Below, piece after piece: positions 8,738-23,550 of a DNA stretch of 64,000 bases (the stretch's first letter is position 1; every line of letters starts with the position of its first letter). Source of the stretch: Nitrosopumilaceae archaeon (GTDB lineage: Archaea; Thermoproteota; Nitrososphaeria; Nitrososphaerales; Nitrosopumilaceae); contig CBDCCK010000002.1 of assembly GCA_965214835.1 (NCBI GenBank), forward strand, positions 832,001 through 896,000, given 5' to 3'. Below the pieces are notes generated by a model that saw only the letters and a program-made list of their open reading frames with translations, did no database searches and was not told the origin of the DNA. Made by a program: the position numbers and the translations under genes.

Positions 8738-9415
8738 TTGGTCAGAAGGGCGGTAATCATATTCAGCGGGGGAATGGACTCGGCCTGCTATGCCTCGCAG
8801 CTGGGGAAAAAATACGACCTGTACGGGATCACGTTTTCCTACGGGCAAAAGGCAGGCCAGGAGATCAGGACTGCAAAAAGATTTGCAAAAAAGATCGGGT
8901 TAAAAAGGCACAGGGTTGTGGATATCGGGTTCATGAAAGAGCTCTACGGGGATACGAACGTCCTGACGGGCCCCAGCAGGAAAATTCCCGGAAAATTCGA
9001 GTATTCCATAGTGGTTCCGATCCGAAACGCCATATTCCTCACGATTGCGGCTGCATGGGCATATACGCTCAATGCGTCAATAGTAGCATATGGCGCGCAT
9101 ACCGGGGATGCCCATTATCCGGACTGCAGGCCGGGATTTGCAGCAAAGATCCAGGACGCGCTAAACGAGGGGGAGGTTGACGGGATCAAGATGGGAATCA
9201 GGCGGCCGGTCAAGGTTCTGTCCCCCTATATTGAAGGGTATTCAAAGAGCGACCTGATAAGACTAGGATACGGGAACCTGGGGGACGGGATTTTCAAGAC
9301 GTGGAGCTGCTATGCGGATAAAAGCGCGCATTGTGGCAGGTGTGAATCGTGCAACAACAGAAAAAGCGCCTTTAAGAGCCTGGATCTCGTTGACAAGACG
9401 GCATACTTGGGCTAG
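8738..9415 (+). CDS. queC: 7-cyano-7-deazaguanine synthase
   Basis: SGGMDS, YGQK, VPIRN, YPDC and SCY...CGRCESC motifs. Confidence 0.95.
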   Translation: MVRRAVIIFSGGMDSACYASQLGKKYDLYGITFSYGQKAGQEIRTAKRFAKKIGLKRHRVVDIGFMKELYGDTNVLTGPSRKIPGKFEYSIVVPIRNAIFLTIAAAWAYTLNASIVAYGAHTGDAHYPDCRPGFAAKIQDALNEGEVDGIKMGIRRPVKVLSPYIEGYSKSDLIRLGYGNLGDGIFKTWSCYADKSAHCGRCESCNNRKSAFKSLDLVDKTAYLG

Positions 9416-13687: not shown

Positions 13688-14658
13688 TCACGACAGTTCG
13701 GGTATGCCTATGTCGCGAAGATAGGCATATGTCTTATCATAGAATGCGGGAAGCCGTGTATGATCGTTTATGTCTCCATGAGGTAAAAAGATCACCAGTC
13801 CTTGCCTTGCTCGCGTCAGCAAAACCCGATACGCGTTTTTCAGGTATGACATCCTAGCATCCTTTCTGATATGGGTCCATTTTGATCCCCTAAACTCGCG
13901 ATATATCCAGTCCTTGGCAGAGCTATATCTAAGGTTGGCATCCCATGCAACACATGCCCAGTCAAGCTCAAGCCCCTGTACATGAAACTCCGTAGCAGCG
14001 TATTCAAGACTGTACGATGAGCGGTGATCATTACGCTCGTTAAGAAACCATTTTGTGGCATCGACTGTAAGCTCGACGTATATTCCGTGCGGCTGCAGTC
14101 TGTACGATTTTGCGCTTGCCACTATTCCGAACCTCTCGCTTCCACGTGCCTTCTCGCGCAGCCACTGCTTTGCGCGCTCAAAGTCCCGCGTCATTACTAT
14201 CGGATACCGATCCAGCATCCCCAATACATTTCGTGCGTCTTCTGTATTGCAATCCAAAAGCACCTTCACAAATTCTGACACACGCTCGCTACGAAACGAC
14301 CTGATTGATGTGCTCAGATGCAGATCTGGAACAGACGTACACTTTGTGTCGCCTACAAGATCGATCATGTTCTGATTACCTGTGTATTCGGCGTCTGTTA
14401 TCTTTGTGGATATGTAGACGTTCCAGTCCGGGTAGTGGTTGCGAATACTATCAAACCACTCTGTCAGCCCTGCCTCGCCGGTGTTGATCTCCTGGCCTCC
14501 TCCTACTAGGCACACGATCACCGCCCATCCCTCGTGCCTGTCTAGGACACTGATCAGAAACTGGGGTTCGGACATGTTAAAGTTCTTTATTCTCTTCTTG
14601 CTTGCCATAAAACGGGTCGTTTGTTCCTTGTTCCATGCCCGTTGTGCCTCGTCAAATG
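13688..14658 (-). pseudogene. DUF2075 (Schlafen-group helicase) C-terminal half, 5'-truncated
   Basis: FDEAQRAW, GGGQEINTGE, TSIRSFRS, TEFHVQGLELDW and NAYRVLLTRARQG motifs; Walker A and nuclease regions missing, ORF start lies in a MITE. Confidence 0.85.
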
Positions 14659-14720
14659 AGACTGGTAAGTTAGCGGGAGCTGATTTCTTCTGGAAGCATC
14701 GGGAGCTGCTATGGGCATTA

Positions 14721-14798
14721 GACCTTATGCATAATCGGTTCAGAACTAGGATTATTACGAACAAATTCATCACATTCAGGTCGATTACGCATAAAGCC
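14721..14798. mobile_element. MITE family E (78 bp), TA-flanked
   Basis: GACCTTATGCATAATCG...CGATTACGCATAAAGCC flanked by TA on both sides; same end at 52121-52138 and about 15777. Confidence 0.75.
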
Positions 14799-14802
14799 TA
14801 CC

Positions 14803-15091
14803 GGACCGTAGCATCGGGCTGACAAGCTCTAGGCCATACCGCCCGGAGACCAACAGCAAGCTAGCAAGATTTCACGGTAGTATAGAGGCCAAAATCCACC
14901 ACTATGCGAGTCTGGCTGTATACGTGGAATACTATAACGAGCGCAGGCTACACTTTGCAATGGATATCGACAACTGTGAGACGCCGTTGCAGGCCTTCTC
15001 GGCAGAGGCCACAGAAGCGATCAGAAAAAGCAACCCAAAATGGATGGGGAGGGACATCAATGACTAGCGAACCTAATTTTCATATAACACA
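14803..15091 (+). mobile_element. IS481-like transposase remnant
   Basis: SRPYRPETNSKLARFH...YVEYYNERRLH; same right end as the copy ending at 5843. Confidence 0.75.
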
Positions 15092-15105
15092 ACTCCAAAT
15101 CCCTG

Positions 15106-15530
15106 TTGGTGAGAAGATCATACTATTCTGGAACCATACAGGAGTTCTTGGCGGCCGACGGAGGCAAGATACTAGACGAGATCCGTGAGAATGACACCTT
15201 CAAGCCAGACAGGAATCAGACTGATGCGTGGAGGGAGCAGATCCTCATACTGAAGGATCAGCTCAGGGATCTTGGGCGTGGCCATGTCATCTTCGAGTAT
15301 ACCATTCCTAGGATGGGCAAGAGGGTAGACACCGTGGTGATCCACTCTGACTTTGTATTTGTCATGGAGTTCAAGGTCAACAAGAAGAGATTCGAAAGGC
15401 AGGACGAGGATCAGTGCACCGACTATGCGCTGGATCTGAAGAACTTCCACGAGGACAGCCATTGCGCCTCGATAGTGCCGATCCTCGTATCCACGGAGGC
15501 AGACAGCCCGGATCATGAGACGCCAGAAAA
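15106..15530 (+). pseudogene. DUF2075 helicase-nuclease, N-terminal nuclease part (interrupted)
   Basis: FEYTIPRMGKRVD...VMEFK...QCTDYALDLKNFH; joins in frame to 17842..19357 once the insertion is removed. Confidence 0.85.
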
Positions 15531-15800
15531 GTACAACTTCAGGTCCTATTTATACTGACTAGGGAACTTTTTGCCCGGAACTTTTTGATCCTTCCGCATC
15601 CGTTGTGACAGACCCGTTGCATCACGGTTCTGTGTAATCTTGGTGATATGAAATTTCATCGGGATCAGGAATGCCCGACAATCTGACCTTTCAGGTTGTT
15701 CTGTGTAATCTTAGGCACCTGAGGCTGGATCTTCTGATTGAAATGATGATGTTCTGGACACAATGCGTCATAGTCAGACCTTATGTGTAATCGGCACTGA

Positions 15801-15926
15801 TCAAAAAAACCAGGCAGCTTTTACGTAATTTTTGGAAAACTCCGTCTGTTCCAGGGTCTTGGCAGCCCGGCCCTTGATGGTTGCCACGCACGTCTTTTTA
15901 TGAACGTCTATTCCTATGTTGATCAT
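15801..15926 (-). pseudogene. IS110-family recombinase N-terminal fragment
   Basis: MINIGIDVHKKTCVATI (DEDD-domain start) after a GGAGGTGA RBS; truncated. Confidence 0.7.
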
Positions 15927-16437
15927 TATATCACCTCCCTGTTGATCAAAGTGTGTGTGCCCAACTGTGCGGAAAACTCCCATTCGCCCTCGATGTGGCA
16001 TTTCGTTGTCCGCCTACTCTGAGCCAGTCTCTTACGCGCTCTCATATGTGGCAAGTTTACTTCGGCTCTTGGGCCCAACATGGATAGTATGGCATCCGCT
16101 ACAGATAAGATTTGATATAACGTCTCTTACCAGTTGGGTGTATTTCCGCGACGATAATATCGCGGCCCATTGAAGTTTGGGAGCACCAGTACGGGATTCG
16201 ACTGTAAGATGTTGCTTTCCGCGACGTTGTTGCGATCCCATTCAAGCAAAGGCTTTAGGATTTTCAGGATCTCGTTGGCGGCACTGCCGATCAGGATCTT
16301 CATTACCATGCCTCCTGTGCAGTATCCGCTGGATCGGGTAAACCTTCACCCGGCATCCTCCTCCTGGCACCGTCTGTACCGTCGTGAACCAGGCGCATTT
16401 GGGATGACTGAAAACGAATCATTATAAGATACTTGGT

Positions 16438-17052
16438 ATGAGTATCTTCATGCCGGCCAACAAGCTGAAGAGGATTGTAGGGGATGAATTTTTTTCACAG
16501 TTCGAACATGATTTGGAAAAACTGATTGAATCCGGACCAAAAACGTGGGACATGCTGTTTTCTGTATATGAAGACATGGAACATCACCAGCAGTACAACT
16601 TTTTGTTGAAGAAAAAATGTGCGGCGCATGGAGGATCATACGACGACATAGTGCGGTTGTCTTCACCATTTCGCTATCTCATACGGCTGATGTTGAACGG
16701 AATATTGGAGAAAAACGACATCAGGAATGCCATCCTGGACAGCACAGACCACTCAAATGTAGACGCGTTTTGCGATGAGCTGGCTTCCAAGTTTGATTCA
16801 TGTCGTGATAAACTCAAGGTGGCCAATGCTGTCGGAATGGCATTTAATCATGACATATCCCTGCTGGAAGACATTAGGGTCGATACTGGAGTGAGAAGCG
16901 TAGTGGTGGATTCTAGCACAGTTAAAAAGCCAATAATAACAATAAGCCTGGATGAAGTTGTGTTTAACTGCACCAAGGGAGATGTACACATTTTAATTGA
17001 CATTTTAAAAAACGCATGTAAGGTGATAGAGGATGAGTACGAGAAAAACTAG
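16438..17052 (+). CDS. Hypothetical protein, COMM-domain-like (COMMD-like)
   Basis: 204 aa; helical N-domain, then strand-strand-strand-helix pattern LEDIRVDTGVRSV..KPIITISL.EVVFNCTKGDVHILIDILKNA. Confidence 0.55.
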   Translation: MSIFMPANKLKRIVGDEFFSQFEHDLEKLIESGPKTWDMLFSVYEDMEHHQQYNFLLKKKCAAHGGSYDDIVRLSSPFRYLIRLMLNGILEKNDIRNAILDSTDHSNVDAFCDELASKFDSCRDKLKVANAVGMAFNHDISLLEDIRVDTGVRSVVVDSSTVKKPIITISLDEVVFNCTKGDVHILIDILKNACKVIEDEYEKN

Positions 17053-17404
17053 GCTGAAGAATGCTCACGGCAGGCTGTCGTATGAACCCGGTGGCGGCCT
17101 GATTAAAATCAGGACGAATGAGGAATCACGTGAAATGAGGTTGGAGTTTCCAAACAAGGAGATGTATGTCAAATTTTATGATTTTGCAACAGAAAACTAT
17201 GACAGGTACAGGATATATCAAGATCACCAGGGTTTCAGCTTCCCCAAAAAATCCGCCGCATTCGTCGGCACCAGCATAGCTGCAAGCCTGGGCCTGATTA
17301 TGCTGGTTGCGCACCCGCTAGGTATCATATCCGCATCCGCGTTCATATGCCCGGGGTACATGCATGGAAAGTCAATTTACAACTGGTTTAGAAACCGCAG
17401 ATGA
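17033..17404 (+). CDS. Hypothetical membrane protein
   Basis: Soluble N-terminal ~70 aa plus two C-terminal hydrophobic segments; overlaps the upstream gene by 20 nt. Confidence 0.6.
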   Translation: MSTRKTRLKNAHGRLSYEPGGGLIKIRTNEESREMRLEFPNKEMYVKFYDFATENYDRYRIYQDHQGFSFPKKSAAFVGTSIAASLGLIMLVAHPLGIISASAFICPGYMHGKSIYNWFRNRR

Positions 17405-17622
17405 ACCAAAGACAGTTTTTAACCTGTTTTATTGGAACTGTGGGTACAATGGCATTTACCACGTATGCCGTCACATTTGACATGAATGATATGGAGACCG
17501 AAATCACGCTGGAAAAACTGAAGATAACAACGCCGCTGGATCTGGTCCTCCCGTTCATGGTCTTGTGCGCAGGCACGATAGGATGTATAATCCGGAGTGA
17601 TGCTGGGCCGTCGGCCAAGTGA
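17401..17622 (+). CDS. Small two-TM protein
   Basis: ATGA overlap with the previous stop; two hydrophobic segments. Confidence 0.55.
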   Translation: MNQRQFLTCFIGTVGTMAFTTYAVTFDMNDMETEITLEKLKITTPLDLVLPFMVLCAGTIGCIIRSDAGPSAK

Positions 17623-17635
17623 AATGTATAGTGAC

Positions 17636-17767
17636 GGGGGTTGTCGCCTAATTCCATTTATCTGGCTCTACCTGCACATTTTTCTGAATTTCCGCCCTTT
17701 TACACGCCTGATCCATATGGCAACTCAATAGTTTTCAGGAATTCTAATGAATTAGGCGACAACCCCC
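17636..17767. mobile_element. MITE family D (IS256-like ends)
   Basis: TIR GGGGGTTGTCGCCTAATTC/GAATTAGGCGACAACCCCC; homolog at 19382-19630. Confidence 0.85.
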
Positions 17768-17841
17768 ATCTGATCATAAGATGCTGCCCAGGAAATGCCT
17801 GCCTGTCAGTATAAAAAGGACCTGAAGTTGTACCCAGAAAA

Positions 17842-19357
17842 GTATGTCGACTGCGTATATCACACGATCCGCGCAAACAAGGACGAGATACGCGATACCA
17901 TGAGGCGCGTCTCCTCCTCAGACGAGGCCGGATGCCGCGTGACGGCCACAAAGTGGGAGGATTCAATGTACCGCCCTACACCTACGATAACTGAGGCCGC
18001 CACCGCGCTGTGCGGCGGCATCTCGGGCATTGACGACCTGATGCACTCTGATGCAGGCAAGATAAACTTGGACGTTACTGCAGGTGCCATAAGCGGGATA
18101 ATCGAGAAATCAAAACGCAATGGCTCCAAGTCCATCTGCTTTGTAACCGGGGTTCCGGGATCCGGCAAGACGCTTGCGGCGCTGAACCTGGTGTGCGGTG
18201 CCCATCGCGAGAAGGACGGGCGGGCCGTGTTACTGTCCGGAAATCAGACACTGGTGAATGTACTCAAAGAGTCACTCGTACGGGGAGGCGGATGCATAAC
18301 AGAATACGAGGGCAAGGCAGCAGCATCGCTGATACAGCACATACCCAAGTTCAGAAATAACATCAGCCCCGACAAGCCGTCATTGGAGAGGATTATGGTG
18401 TTTGACGAGGCGCAGCGGGCATGGTCTGCCGAGAAGCTTGCAAAATCACAGAAAACCAAGAACCTTGACTATCACGGAATGTCGGATCCGGAGCTGTTGA
18501 TAGGGTCGATGGCCAGGCACAAGGGGTGGGCCGTGATAGTGTGCCTGATAGGGGAGGGCCAGGAGATCTACGACGGTGAGGTCGGTCTATCCGGGTGGCT
18601 GGAGGCCATAAGGAACAGGTACCCCAAATGGAATGTATACCATTCGGCGAGGATCGATGATCCACGCTACGGCAAGGATGTACCGGCCCTGCTTGAGGGA
18701 ACTCGACACGATGCGGTGAAGGGACTGCATCTGGACACGTCAATCAGGTCATTCCGTGCCGAGAGCCTGTCGATGCTCGTATCCAGAATCCTAGATCGCG
18801 ACGCGGAGGGCGCACAGGAGGTCTGGAGAGGCATCAGCGACAGGTATCCCATTGCCATCACGCGCGACATCAACAAGGCAAAAAAGTGGGTAAGGGGGAG
18901 GGCGCGCGGAACCGAAAGGTACGGCATCGTGGCAAGCTCGGAGGGATACCGACTTGGGCCGCATGGGATATTCGTAAAGTCCGACATCAAGCCCGTCCAT
19001 TGGTTCATGGCAGGCAAGGACGATATACGCTCGTCGTATTATATGGAGAAAGTAGCCACCGAGTTTTACATACAGGGGCTGGAGCTTGATTGGGTGTGCC
19101 TTGCATGGGATGCAAACTTGAGGTATATAGACGGGGACTGGCAGGCGCACAGGTTCCGCGGGAGCAGCTGGGGATCCATAAAGACTGAGAAGGCTCGCGA
19201 GTACCTGCTGAACTCGTACCGCGTGCTACTCACCAGGGCCCGTCAGGGGATGGTGATATTCGTCCCGGAGGGAGACGACCACGACGCCACTAGGAACCCG
19301 GAGTTCTACGACGGTACGTACGAGTATCTCAAAGGCATCGGGTTTGAGGAGATATGA
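17842..19357 (+). pseudogene. DUF2075 helicase-nuclease, C-terminal part
   Basis: Walker A GVPGSGKT, FDEAQRAW, QGLELDW and YRVLLTRARQG motifs; separated from its N-terminus by the 15531-17833 element. Confidence 0.88.
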
Positions 19358-20163: not shown

Positions 20164-21483
20164 CTATTCGATTGGGGCTATTTTTGAAAGATCTACGTCA
20201 AACCTGTCTGATATCTGCGATGCGATTTTCTTCCTGATTTCTTTATCTGCAGGTCCATATATCAAAAACTTGTCTACATCCCTGCCTGAAATTGGCGAGA
20301 ACGTATCAAAGTCATAAACATCATCACCGACCCTAAACAATATCTCCCCTTTTTTGAACAGCTTGTTCTTTATTGTTGATTTAAAGAAAATCACCTCATG
20401 TGGCTCTAAATTAAGAGAATTGCTTATTTCAAGCGCAATTTCGTTAAAATCACCTGACTTCATTTTCATAAACCTTCCCTCTACATCTGCTGCGTTTTCT
20501 AGATCCTTTGGAGCAAACTCACAGGCACGTTTGAGCAATTTTCTCTTCCTGATGTTGACGAGAATCAGCTTGGATGTTTTTGCATCATCGCTATCAATGA
20601 TTTTGTTGTAGGTTGAATAATCATCAAGGGAGGTGTAAAATTTCAAAAATTCTGGGTTGTCTTTATCTGGGTTGAATTTTAGTAGATTTTCATCAAAAAT
20701 CTTTTCATCGTAAATTGCAATTTCAAGTGCCTTGAGAAACATCTGGTCTGCGGCCAGCCTTGCATGGTGCGTATAGACTTGAACATGCATCAAGTATCGT
20801 GCCAGCCTGTAATTTTCAAGTGCGTCCTTTCCTTTCTTGCTGATGCAAATTCTAGAACCTTTTGGTGTTGAAGTAAGCGTGTGTAAAATTCGGTTAAAGT
20901 CAAACTGCCCATATGCAACACCAATATGGTATGAATCTCGCCTGAGATAGTCTAACTTGTCTGCATCAATACCGCTTGAAATAATGTCTGCCTGAAGTGG
21001 CTTTTCGGATTCTTTGTAGGATTCCTTTTTTTCTAGCAATTCTATGATTTCGTTTTTCTTTTCGCCTAGAATTGAGTCTAATTCTGAGTCTTCTTTAATT
21101 ATGATTCTTGAAATTTTTTCATGGGATTCTGAAATCGTAGGATTAGCCTTCTCTATTACTGCCTCAAACAAGTGAGAGAATGGACCATGGCCAAGATCAT
21201 GCATTAGGCACGAACATCTGATTCTTTCAATATCGTCTCGTTTGGTAAATCCCAGCTCGCGTGCCATTATGTTTGATACATATAATGCCCCTATGGAATG
21301 CTCAAATCTGGTATGTACTGATGACGGATATGCAACATATGCATGGGAAAGCTGTTTGATAAACTGTAATCTTCTAAAGACTTCTGCGTCTATGATTTTG
21401 GTTTCTAGTTCTGAAAGATCAACAAATCCGTAGAGAGGATCTCTGATTGCTTTGGCTCTAAAATAGCTGTTAGGCATAGACAA
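20164..21483 (-). CDS. HD-domain phosphohydrolase, SAMHD1/YwfO dNTPase-like
   Basis: RDPLYG, RRLQFIKQL, HTRFEHSIG, HDLGHGPFSH, DADKLDYLRRD and VYTHH motifs; low GC, intact. Confidence 0.9.
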   Translation of the reverse strand: MSMPNSYFRAKAIRDPLYGFVDLSELETKIIDAEVFRRLQFIKQLSHAYVAYPSSVHTRFEHSIGALYVSNIMARELGFTKRDDIERIRCSCLMHDLGHGPFSHLFEAVIEKANPTISESHEKISRIIIKEDSELDSILGEKKNEIIELLEKKESYKESEKPLQADIISSGIDADKLDYLRRDSYHIGVAYGQFDFNRILHTLTSTPKGSRICISKKGKDALENYRLARYLMHVQVYTHHARLAADQMFLKALEIAIYDEKIFDENLLKFNPDKDNPEFLKFYTSLDDYSTYNKIIDSDDAKTSKLILVNIRKRKLLKRACEFAPKDLENAADVEGRFMKMKSGDFNEIALEISNSLNLEPHEVIFFKSTIKNKLFKKGEILFRVGDDVYDFDTFSPISGRDVDKFLIYGPADKEIRKKIASQISDRFDVDLSKIAPIE

Positions 21484-22021
21484 GGTTCAGATTTTGAAGT
21501 AGTTCGAGTCCAGTCATTGCATCCTCTTGAGAAATATTCCAGTCAAAGTCTTTTGCAATTGTTTTTACGTCTTCTGCTGAAAACTTGTCTTTGAGTCGGG
21601 ATTCTGAATTTATCAAAATGTAGTGGGCCTTTGCTGCATATGATAGCGGTGTTGGCCTTAGTTTGCAGTGTTCTTTGCATACGCGGACGGTTTTAGAAAT
21701 TGTTTCGTATTCTTTTGGGTATTTTCTCATTGCAGTTTCGGCGTATTTGATTCCGTCTTCTGTTAACTTGTAATTGTAGGTTTCATAGTAGCCTGAAATG
21801 ATGTTTTGATCAATGTATGAAAATTCAGACATGTCTTCCAGTGCGACTGATACTTCCCTGCTGAACGGACCATAGAAATAATGAGTATAGCCTGAAATGT
21901 CCAGATTCTTGATCGTAACTGTATGAAAGTAGACCAGTTTCTGAATTGCTGTTCTGCCTGCCATTTTGTCACCATTTGCATGAATAGTCAGTGCAATAGC
22001 GTCAAAAACATCCAATCCCAT
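21470..22021 (-). CDS. YwgA-like winged-helix protein
   Basis: GRTAIQKLVYF...YFYGPFSREV...YKLTEDG; overlaps the HD gene. Confidence 0.7.
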   Translation of the reverse strand: MGLDVFDAIALTIHANGDKMAGRTAIQKLVYFHTVTIKNLDISGYTHYFYGPFSREVSVALEDMSEFSYIDQNIISGYYETYNYKLTEDGIKYAETAMRKYPKEYETISKTVRVCKEHCKLRPTPLSYAAKAHYILINSESRLKDKFSAEDVKTIAKDFDWNISQEDAMTGLELLQNLNLVYA

Positions 22022-22474: not shown

Positions 22475-22583
22475 CTTGGGTACTCTGGTAAATCTCCGGG
22501 GTTTTTCAGCACGTAAATGACATTGAGGGCATATTCTACTACAGAGCTTGGGTACTCTGGTAAATCTCCGGGGTTTTTCAGCA
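22475..22583. repeat. Two identical 37-bp direct repeats separated by 35 bp (mini-array-like)
   Basis: CTTGGGTACTCTGGTAAATCTCCGGGGTTTTTCAGCA at 22475-22511 and 22547-22583. Confidence 0.9.
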
Positions 22584-23550
22584 GGGTATTAAGTTAGGGG
22601 TTTGTAGCGTTGACTTAGGGAGCTGTATGTGACTCGGCCGTGGACTCGTCCCCAAACAGCCGTTTCTGCCCAGATCCGTCAAGGGTGTTCTGGAGCCCGG
22701 ATTTCCTTCTGTTCTTTTTTGCGACTTTTGCTTTTTAGGATGCTTGGATTTTCTCGCTTGTGGTTTTTTCTCTGTCTTGCCAATGCTGGCATCTGACTTG
22801 CCAAGGTATGACTCGGACTGTTTTCCCCAGGGCATTCGTTCAAGATCTCGGCGCAACCTCATCGTCTCTACAGAGACCGTGTTCACCCTTTGGAGTAGGT
22901 CTATGACGTGCTCCTTATGATCGGCAAATTTGTACGTGTTGAATTCTTCTCGGACGCTAGGATCATCACAGGATTTTCCAGATATGACGTTTTTTGGTTC
23001 TTTGTAAAACTCTAGGATCCATTCCAGTGCGCATTTTGAGTTGAATTTGTATTGCAACGCTTCTTTTGGCACTCCTTCAAGCATCGTATTATCATCAATC
23101 ATTATGGCAAAATTCGTAACAGCTCGGGCTCTGGAAGTGATTTATGATTTTAGGCACAAATTACATCTGCGAAGATCCCTTTGGCGATAAAATTCATGCC
23201 TGAACTTCCAGAGCCCGAGCTGTTACCAAAATTCTGAGAGTTGTCTTCTTCTTTCGGTTTTTTCAGCATGAGTCGGGTTTGATTTTTTGCAGTCTTTTTG
23301 TCTGCTCGCTTCAATGGATACTTTTTGGCACATTCAAAGTTGACATGGAGATCATACAGTTTCCTGCCTATCTTCACCCAATCATCGAAATCCTCAGCTA
23401 GTGGAATTCTTAGGAATCTGCGTTGCAGATCATACTTGTATTTTTCTTAGTATTTGGGATCGCTGAAAATGGCATAGGTGTAATAGAATATGTCCTCGTC
23501 TGCTATCGCTTTGTTCCTGTAGTGTTTTTGAAATAACTCCAAACCAAAGT
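22578..23550 (-). pseudogene. Type ISP restriction-modification enzyme, C-terminal specificity-domain remnant
   Basis: EDIFYYTYAIFSDPKY*EKY..DL...F.RIP...GRKLYDLHVNFE...GVPKEALQY...ALEWILE...VIDLLQRV.TVSVET; nonsense codon plus MITE insertion. Confidence 0.8.
23116..23226. mobile_element. MITE family B inserted in the type ISP remnant
   Basis: Perfect 22-bp TIR GTAACAGCTCGGGCTCTGGAAG; 8-bp TSD CAAAATTC. Confidence 0.93.

Follow-up and report, generated by a model that had tools for sequence, protein, structure and literature searches.

Proteins of the COMMD type are known from eukaryotes, where, according to Liu et al. (Nat Commun 2026, PMC13392464), they are core components of the endosomal recycling machinery of the host, and from prokaryotes. 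The prokaryotic COMMD-like proteins share less than 20% identity with eukaryotic COMMDs, escape sequence methods and are widespread in free-living bacteria and archaea; their measured homo-oligomers contain mostly 8 or 10 subunits, and rings were resolved by crystallography and cryo-electron microscopy (PDB 9q6a/9q6c; PMC13392464). Their function is unknown according to the same authors, who predicted no interaction with any neighbouring gene product, and prokaryotes are not known to possess CCDC22, CCDC93 or Retriever as partners. A second paper reports Asgard COMMD-like homologues (PMC12962969). The present analysis concerns a 64,000-nucleotide stretch, hereafter the window, from a Nitrosopumilaceae archaeon (assembly GCA_965214835.1, contig CBDCCK010000002.1, positions 832,001 to 896,000 of the forward strand). 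It carries three overlapping genes (genes 1 to 3), of which the first very probably encodes a COMMD-type two-domain protein, a judgement that covers jointly the fold match, the conserved gene order, the anatomy of the surrounding mobile element and an empty insertion site. The best overall explanation, to which we assign a probability of about 0.6, is that this COMMD-like gene is the first of a translationally coupled, accessory, rare and mobile operon carried by a derivative of an IS66-family insertion sequence (IS).

The window protein shares with the prokaryotic COMMD-like proteins a length of about 200 aa, the succession of a helical HN domain, a three-stranded COMM-type sheet and a long helix, the occurrence as one copy per genome, and the fact that it is recognisable by structure only. 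It differs from them in that no sequence match links its family to the solved bacterial protein, that this family is so far found in one ammonia-oxidising archaeal family and in metagenome contigs, and that the gene sits on an IS-derived element. It also has two dedicated membrane-protein neighbours, whereas no partner was predicted in any neighbourhood in the main text of PMC13392464 (its neighbourhood Tables S4 and S5 aside). That main text contains no mention of Nitroso- or thaumarchaeal lineages, transposition or defence, and six Nitrososphaerota taxonomy identifiers were absent from the accession table, whose 111 archaeal identifiers were not mapped in full. The eukaryotic COMMD1-10 proteins of Commander/CCC have the same two-domain architecture and provide the best structural matches (8f2r_D, 8p0w_E, 8f2u_H), but identities in the structural alignments are only 6-16%, and a single gene is present here against ten paralogues. 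Since PMC13392464 and PMC12962969 already report prokaryotic COMMD-like proteins, the fold class is not new, and the description of the system as "undescribed" in the initial annotation does not hold for it. What is new is the gene 1 family, a tiny and very divergent COMMD-like subfamily in ammonia-oxidising archaea, together with the order COMMD-like protein, hairpin protein and two-helix membrane protein as a conserved partner pair, and the finding that an IS66-type element lacking a transposase, for which an empty site is documented, carries a COMMD-like operon.

The three open reading frames (ORFs) of the operon lie on one strand (Table 1), with an overlap of 20 nt between genes 1 and 2 and of 4 nt between genes 2 and 3. 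The second ATG of gene 1, at 16450 (200 aa), appears the likelier start, because the public protein collection contains a 200-aa form (P0001) and a TTATAA box lies about 26 nt upstream. The gene 1 product possessed no membrane segment and no hydrophobic N-terminus (maximum 19-residue Kyte-Doolittle hydropathy of 0.84). Kyte-Doolittle windows located a hydrophobic stretch of about 34 residues in the gene 2 product (74-107), with a proline mid-way and basic residues on either side, and two in the gene 3 product (42-66, and a weaker one at about 6-26), separated by an acidic loop. Judging by its charge and the positive-inside rule, the N-terminal part of the gene 2 product (about 70 residues) would be cytoplasmic. 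None of the three proteins matched Pfam at a meaningful level, and none matched any family of PADLOC-DB 2.0 at E up to 0.1. The AlphaFold2 (AF2) model of the gene 2 product, with a predicted local distance difference test (pLDDT) of 50, was too poor for a fold search, and a protein-language-model neighbour search with the same protein gave no usable match.

For the gene 1 product, the AF2 model obtained from alignment A1 reached a pLDDT of 87 and a predicted template modelling score of 0.73. DSSP assigned helices to residues 9-136, strands to 146-157, 160-171 and 174-178, and a helix to 180-203; the model thus contains an all-helical N-terminal domain with the COMMD topology, as in HN domains, followed by the three-stranded antiparallel sheet and extended helix of COMM domains. 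In a Foldseek search against the PDB, the best 11 among the matches listed all came from COMMD chains of human CCC/Commander or from 9q6a/9q6c, a COMMD-like octamer of bacterial origin, with E between 3.6e-4 and 8.8e-3; the match after them had an E of 0.11. VIA-align, run without Foldseek and exhaustively over 48,161 representative PDB chains, returned COMMD or COMMD-like chains at all of ranks 1-7, including 8f2r_D (Z 10.1, 183 residues), 8p0w_E (Z 9.2), 8f2u_H (Z 8.1) and 9q6a_A (Z 7.8, 179 residues). Each domain also fitted when taken alone, the COMM domain to Commd9 6bp6 (Z 6.6, root-mean-square deviation (rmsd) 2.7, 67 residues) and 8esd_F (Z 6.6, 65 residues), and the HN domain to COMMD9 4oe9_B (Z 6.3, rmsd 3.9, 111 residues) and to Commd10 HN entries (Z 5.3-5.5); the Z-scores of the latter domain are middling for helical domains, and its assignment rests mainly on the full-length matches, in which 167-183 residues were aligned. 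The nearest protein-language-model neighbours were clusters bearing COMM_domain (scores of 0.87, 0.85 and 0.84), which, being below the 0.9 line, provide a lead only. The initial annotation had read from the DNA a gene for a 204-aa protein that overlaps two downstream membrane-protein genes, had guessed the secondary structure of the 204-aa protein, and had proposed for it a COMMD-type layout with a C-terminal three-stranded sheet and helix: the ORF list confirmed the first, DSSP on the model matched the second (strands within 146-178, helix 180-203), and Foldseek, VIA-align and the language-model neighbours agree on the third.

To delimit the gene 1 family, 1.84 billion representative proteins were searched exhaustively with HMMER (E up to 0.001), giving 10 matches: the window protein, six full-length relatives (P0002, P0003, P0004, P0006, P0007 and P0009; 184-199 aa, 22-31% identity) and three long proteins. 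Alignment A1, which contains the first seven, has 13 invariant columns. Three relatives of the gene 2 product were found (P0013, P0015 and P0016; 123-130 aa), with a coherent family alignment; as gene 1 has six and gene 2 three distant relatives, the ORFs of the operon are more than chance. The long proteins were dropped from the family, P0005 (2221 aa) because it had only an 18-26-residue motif in common, recurring every 56 residues, and P0008 (858 aa) and P0010 (1019 aa) because they matched over short stretches or not at all. P0005 is a giant protein of 56-residue repeats, and the 18-residue motif in each repeat resembles the W..L..VYE..E.HQQ helix conserved in the HN domain, a likeness that is probably due to chance or limited to the motif itself. 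A word-index search with the gene 1 protein alone retrieved only itself (1 match, 178 candidates), and one with the family profile only P0009, P0007 and the window protein (3 among 2135 candidates). Locus searches with alignment A2 retrieved nothing from genome, metagenome or viral contigs, those with A7 and P0002 nothing from viral contigs, and that with the window gene 1 protein nothing from metagenome contigs. A lone 47-residue match of P0002 on a Pelomonas contig was treated as spurious.

The window genome (G000) encodes an archaeal AmoA (E 1.4e-115) and is therefore that of an ammonia-oxidising archaeon. The A1 profile had one match in this genome, none in 400 other genomes sampled from the order, one in 400 genomes sampled from the family (G415), and none in 151 genomes of the largest genus of the family, these samples being overlapping and partial. 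The G415 cassette possessed genes for proteins of 185, 129 and 76 aa in the same order, with a 3-nt gap followed by an 11-nt overlap. Its COMMD-like protein (185 aa) was identical to P0004 and shared 22% identity with the window protein, the 129-aa protein had the same hairpin and basic tail, and the 76-aa protein was again of the two-helix type. The gene 2 profile matched 6 of the 401 genomes in the family sample (G000 counted), and tblastn confirmed the gene in G415, G437 and G286, failing to confirm the weak matches in G277 and G647. In G437, which belongs to the same genus as the window genome, a remnant 76.5% identical over window positions 16947-17609 retained 34 codons from the end of gene 1, with gene 2 spread over three frames and gene 3 over two (63-70% identity to the window gene 3 product), and was cut off upstream by a repeat also found beside the IS110 fragment of the window. 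In G286, the C-terminal half of gene 2, without a start codon (36% identity, E 1e-12), preceded an overlapping 69-aa two-helix ORF. The gene order was therefore the same in every other genome with any part of the cassette, which bears out the proposed linkage to two membrane-protein genes; two of the four copies had decayed. The lengths of the contigs bearing the gene 2 homologues P0015 (1755 bases) and P0016 (8923 bases) coincided with that of no contig of a COMMD-like homologue, and so give no proof of linkage. The G286 remnant (L038, 960-1800) also showed a tandem expansion with four IIVAS units, and the adjoining DNA was full of short tandem repeats open in several frames.

Members of the IS66 family generate 8-bp target duplications and have terminal repeats beginning with GTA. 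The operon is enclosed by 29-nt terminal repeats that are 97% complementary, 0 being expected by chance (100 shuffles), and the terminal repeat had 26 matches in G000 with up to 3 mismatches, compared to 0 in the reversed control. A canonical copy of 2051 bp encoded a 526-aa protein with a DDE_Tnp_IS66 domain (E 8.3e-17); this transposase, the 8-bp duplication and the GTA-starting repeats fit the IS66 family, although the canonical copy here consists of one long ORF without separate small accessory ORFs and the window copy lacks any transposase. The window element had no more than its two ends, of 95 bp (96%) and 67 bp (100%), in common with the canonical copy, and the interior of the former (96-2236) had no similarity to that of the latter. 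This interior comprised, in order, a short repeat, an IS110 fragment, a 1.5-kb stretch with the operon, which was single-copy in the genome bar one 39-nt match, and a 138-bp miniature inverted-repeat transposable element (MITE). The only trace of a transposase inside was the fragment of about 31 codons of the unrelated IS110 element, a full copy of which (L002:498-1670, minus strand) encoded a DEDD_Tnp_IS110/Transposase_20 protein. A second IS66-type copy had a duplication of the same 8-bp size. Two other IS copies, of 3.3 and 3.8 kb, were canonical elements with nested ISs that had kept their transposase, and the window copy was the only transposase-less one seen. The G+C content was 42-47% in the cassette, 52-56% in the split gene described below and 51.7% in the window.

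Mobile insertion cassettes (MICs) and transporter ISs are presented in PMC3129680 as IS derivatives with passenger genes. As in the MICs described there, IS-type terminal repeats (here those of the DDE_Tnp_IS66 element) and a target duplication surround genes not involved in transposition, no transposase is encoded within, and cognate transposases occur elsewhere in the genome; an empty site is available as well (see below). The window element is, however, messier than a textbook MIC, with an IS110 fragment and a MITE inside. The intact transposases of the full genomic copies could presumably move it in trans. No IS66-family MIC described in archaea was met, no literature search having been aimed at this point.

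The element interrupts a PDC-S41 candidate defence gene. PADLOC matches to PDC-S41 spanned 15106-15558 and 17795-19357, with the profile broken at 139/140, and since the two parts cover profile positions 2-140 and 139-653, they represent one gene split by about 2.3 kb. In-silico removal of 15531-17841 restored a single 646-codon frame without stops. Logan contigs of four public runs were aligned to 14900-18500. In two runs of one study (X1 and X3), a contig was identical to 16101-17699, at a depth similar to that of the flanking gene. In run X5, from a different study, a 361-nt contig of depth 77 joined 15522 to 17834 with 0 mismatches, skipping 2311 bases (2303 + 8); the insertion is therefore real, and an uninterrupted PDC-S41 allele exists. 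The same run also contained contigs of depth 2.4-3.3 that were about 91-92% identical to parts of gene 1 and of genes 2 and 3, so that a diverged copy of the cassette is present elsewhere in that sample.

Table 1. Positions, in window coordinates, of the operon, the element that carries it and the gene that it splits
Feature	Position	Strand	Basis
PDC-S41 candidate defence gene, 5' part, with NERD-like N-terminus (weak NERD match)	15106..15530	+	PADLOC positions 2-140, E 1.2e-46
Left 8-bp target-site duplication, CCAGAAAA	15523..15530		Sequence
IS66-type transposase-less element (mobile-insertion-cassette type), 2303 bp	15531..17833		29-nt inverted repeats; empty site
Left terminal inverted repeat	15531..15559	+	Inverted-repeat search, shuffle control
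5' end fragment of an IS110-family element, first ~300 bp	15832..16130	-	At least 8 other copies, 87-98% identity
Putative archaeal promoter: TATA-like TTATAA (16422-16427) and 10-mer GTATGAGTAT (16436-16445)	16422..16445	+	Comparison with L016:8138-8158
Gene 1, COMMD-like protein (HN + COMM-type domain), 204 aa	16438..17052	+	AF2, Foldseek, VIA-align, language-model neighbours, alignment A1
Gene 2, 123 aa, basic N-terminal part of ~70 aa, hydrophobic hairpin, basic tail	17033..17404	+	Hydropathy; homologues P0013, P0015, P0016; G437/G286 remnants
Gene 3, 73 aa, two hydrophobic helices around an acidic loop	17401..17622	+	Hydropathy; G415 counterpart (weak match, E 0.017); G437 remnant
MITE, 138 bp, 22-nt inverted ends, 10 bp past the operon stop codon	17633..17770		Inverted repeat; at least 32 other copies (40 of 240 candidates scored)
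Right terminal inverted repeat	17805..17833	-	Inverted-repeat search, shuffle control
Right 8-bp target-site duplication, CCAGAAAA	17834..17841		Sequence
PDC-S41 3' part, Schlafen-group-3-type helicase domain	17834..19357	+	PADLOC positions 139-653, E 9e-188; Pfam SLFN-g3_helicase E 1.6e-71

Defence-type genes occupy 13.6-23.1 kb of the window, flanked by queuosine-pathway, TFIIB and other housekeeping genes. A second PDC-S41 gene (13688-14773, minus strand), head-to-head with the split one, lacks about the first 315 profile positions (match to 316-653, E 6e-148), and between the two lies a short ORF (14924-15067, plus strand) that was read by eye as a transposase tail and had no Pfam match. 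At 20164-22021 (minus strand), a gene for a 439-aa HD/HD_assoc_2 protein, which has a weak PADLOC match to dGTPase, shares 14 nt with a gene for a 183-aa protein whose PADLOC match is to the C-terminal part of DarG (E 2.4e-8) and, weakly, to LmuC; the two may possibly form a toxin-antitoxin or defence pair. A 174-aa ORF (22578-23102, minus strand), whose match to the C-terminal specificity domain of Type ISP restriction enzymes is confined to about the final 60 positions, is probably a gene fragment. The initial annotation had drawn on this defence island to suggest an antiviral or host-interaction role. As the cassette is no native neighbour of the defence genes, having arrived inside a transposable element that broke one of them, guilt by association carries little weight; the setting is incidental, an accident of transposition. 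In G415, the cassette has an IS630-type element (DDE_3 transposase) on one side and, on the other, what looks by eye like the 5' end of an IS66-like element; housekeeping genes follow beyond the ISs. It is thus IS-flanked in both intact copies, without a tie to defence genes.

Several observations concern the repeats around these cassettes. The G415 cassette is flanked by an inverted repeat of 16 nt without mismatches, which was first taken for the cassette ends but consists of the abutting termini of two different IS elements with the terminus TGACCTCATAC. This 16-mer ends several unrelated repeat families in the distantly related genomes G415 and G000 (e.g. L016:8109-8124 and 9333-9348), including a MITE of about 75 bp, IS630-type elements and, by eye, IS66-like ones, and had 47 and 32 matches with up to 2 mismatches, compared to 0-1 in the reversed control; it seems that a single end sequence, or a single preference for targets, is common to different elements. 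A variant 16-mer occurs four times at G000:C2:1055112-1055436, about every 100 bp on one strand, and may form a tandem array. DNA alignments of the cassette flanks of G000 and G415 had little in common besides the TATA-like box and one 10-mer. This 10-mer, GTATGAGTAT, lies 4-5 nt 5' of the likely gene 1 start codon in both intact cassettes (16436-16445 and L016:8149-8158), despite the 22% identity of the proteins. It is similar to the shared IS terminus (GTATGAGGTCA) and may act in regulation, be left over from the end of an element or have arisen by chance. The MITE copies were 85-93% identical among themselves; with the MITE, the 26 IS66-type repeat ends and the IS110 copies (at least 8), the genome, of 3.2 Mb, contains an unusual wealth of mobile DNA for a family whose genomes typically measure about 1.6 Mb.

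Under the explanation favoured here, an IS66 derivative retaining only the ends of the IS would have inserted into the PDC-S41 gene, splitting it and creating the 8-bp duplication. By analogy with the measured behaviour of ten other COMMD-like proteins, the gene 1 product would form COMM-mediated dimers and, from these, a closed ring of 8 to 10 subunits. The topology of the membrane proteins and the translational coupling of the genes suggest that the ring may dock on the cytoplasmic face of the membrane through the N-terminal part of the gene 2 product, and that genes 2 and 3 would provide a small integral-membrane partner, with the gene 3 product as its second subunit. Such a membrane-docked ring is put forward tentatively. 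As for its role, an element-borne conflict or addiction module is the leading guess, since rarity, mobility, compactness and small membrane proteins fit it, and remains a doubtful one. The more specific proposal that the ring and the two membrane proteins constitute one membrane-embedded complex, which would serve mobile DNA as a conflict or addiction module of a gated, membrane-acting kind, is unlikely.

A number of points weigh against the reading of the locus as a mobile, conserved COMMD-like operon. The AF2 model rests on the seven sequences of A1, none of the seven family members matched Pfam COMM_domain (PF07258) or COMM_HN (PF21672) at E up to 10, and the family profile searched against the PDB found no COMMD chain at E up to 10. 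The Pfam result is no argument against the structural class, because the published prokaryotic proteins likewise escape sequence methods. Whole-chain superpositions gave an rmsd of 9-15 Å and Foldseek template modelling scores of 0.33-0.41, the high rmsd arising because the two domains are differently oriented in the monomer model. With regard to the element, a target duplication was found in only 2 of the 7 repeat-bounded copies examined, and the interior is a patchwork of the IS110 fragment, the MITE and other repeats, so the original insertion may have been that of a full IS whose interior was exchanged afterwards. The membrane proteins of the window and G415 are only marginally similar pairwise (E 0.057 and 0.017), and the conservation comprises two intact and two decayed copies, all within one archaeal family; two remnants against two intact copies show frequent loss, a pattern equally compatible with a dispensable, a selfish or a useful role.

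Among the other explanations, an antiviral system of the abortive-infection type, or one resembling a toxin-antitoxin pair, would have the ring sense or restrain and the small membrane proteins damage the membrane. Compactness, patchiness, mobility and low G+C are common traits of defence and addiction modules. The locus displays them, as a compact overlapping operon with small membrane proteins at its 3' end, rare and patchy (1 of the 400 sampled family genomes, with remnants in 2 more), and located on mobile DNA that is IS-flanked in both intact copies, with a G+C content below that of its surroundings. However, none of the three proteins had a PADLOC match, the adjoining defence-type genes are not the native context (the element broke one of them), the G415 flanks consist of IS elements and housekeeping genes rather than defence genes, and searches of the viral contig collection brought up no related sequence, so that this role is regarded as doubtful.

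Alternatively, the COMMD resemblance could reflect convergence on a simple fold, the gene 1 product being an analogue comparable to CT584/Cpn0803 of Chlamydiales or to the modules of Pur-alpha, Whirly and PC4. These families share a dimerising C-terminal sheet-plus-helix module and were also listed for the C-terminal part of the protein (Z 5.1 for Cpn0803 and 4.2-4.8 for the Pur-alpha/PC4 modules), sequence carries no signal towards COMM domains, and the discussion of PMC13392464 itself warns that COMMD-like and look-alike families are superficially similar. CT584 forms hexamers through its N-domain (PMC13392464). Convergence is nevertheless improbable, as the HN and COMM-type domains each match the corresponding COMMD domain, in the expected order and with 183 of 199 residues aligned, COMMD and COMMD-like chains scored Z 10.1-7.8 compared to 5.1-4.8 for Cpn0803 and Pur-alpha, with lower coverage for the latter, Pur-alpha and PC4 lack an HN domain, and the language-model neighbours bear Pfam COMM_domain.

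It is very improbable that the protein is a symbiont factor interfering with the Commander-dependent trafficking of an animal host. P0004, the sequence of which is that of the G415 cassette ORF, is named as coming from a sponge-associated archaeon, and COMMD proteins are core to host endosomal recycling according to PMC13392464. Yet the gene 1 product has no hydrophobic N-terminus, its identity to eukaryotic COMMD chains is as low as given above, and COMMD-like proteins are spread through free-living bacteria and archaea. By the positive-inside rule, only the acidic loop of gene 3 (about 20 residues) could face outward, which leaves the three proteins with hardly any exposed part and makes a secreted factor acting on a host unlikely. 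That the ORFs are functionless passengers decaying in nested mobile-element junk, as the patchwork of repeats in the interior and the two broken copies might suggest, is highly unlikely, since all three frames are intact in two genomes with COMMD-like proteins 22% identical, which would not survive without selection, the AF2 model is confident, and further intact metagenome relatives of genes 1 and 2 exist.

According to two papers of 2026 (PMC13392464, PMC12962969), the eukaryotic COMMD ring originated in prokaryotes, and both describe the prokaryotic function as unknown. Read as a mobile COMMD-like operon, the locus described here offers a concrete partner set for such a protein, two translationally coupled membrane proteins whose order is kept across COMMD-like proteins 22% identical. 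It also indicates that a COMMD-like gene can travel as cargo of an insertion-sequence derivative, and it represents a natural knock-out of a candidate defence gene by an element, with the intact allele persisting in another sample. If the ring and the two membrane proteins did form a membrane-embedded complex, prokaryotic COMMD-like proteins would already act at membranes with integral partners, foreshadowing the handling of membrane cargo by Commander, and the operon would provide the first functional handle on the prokaryotic COMMD-like family.

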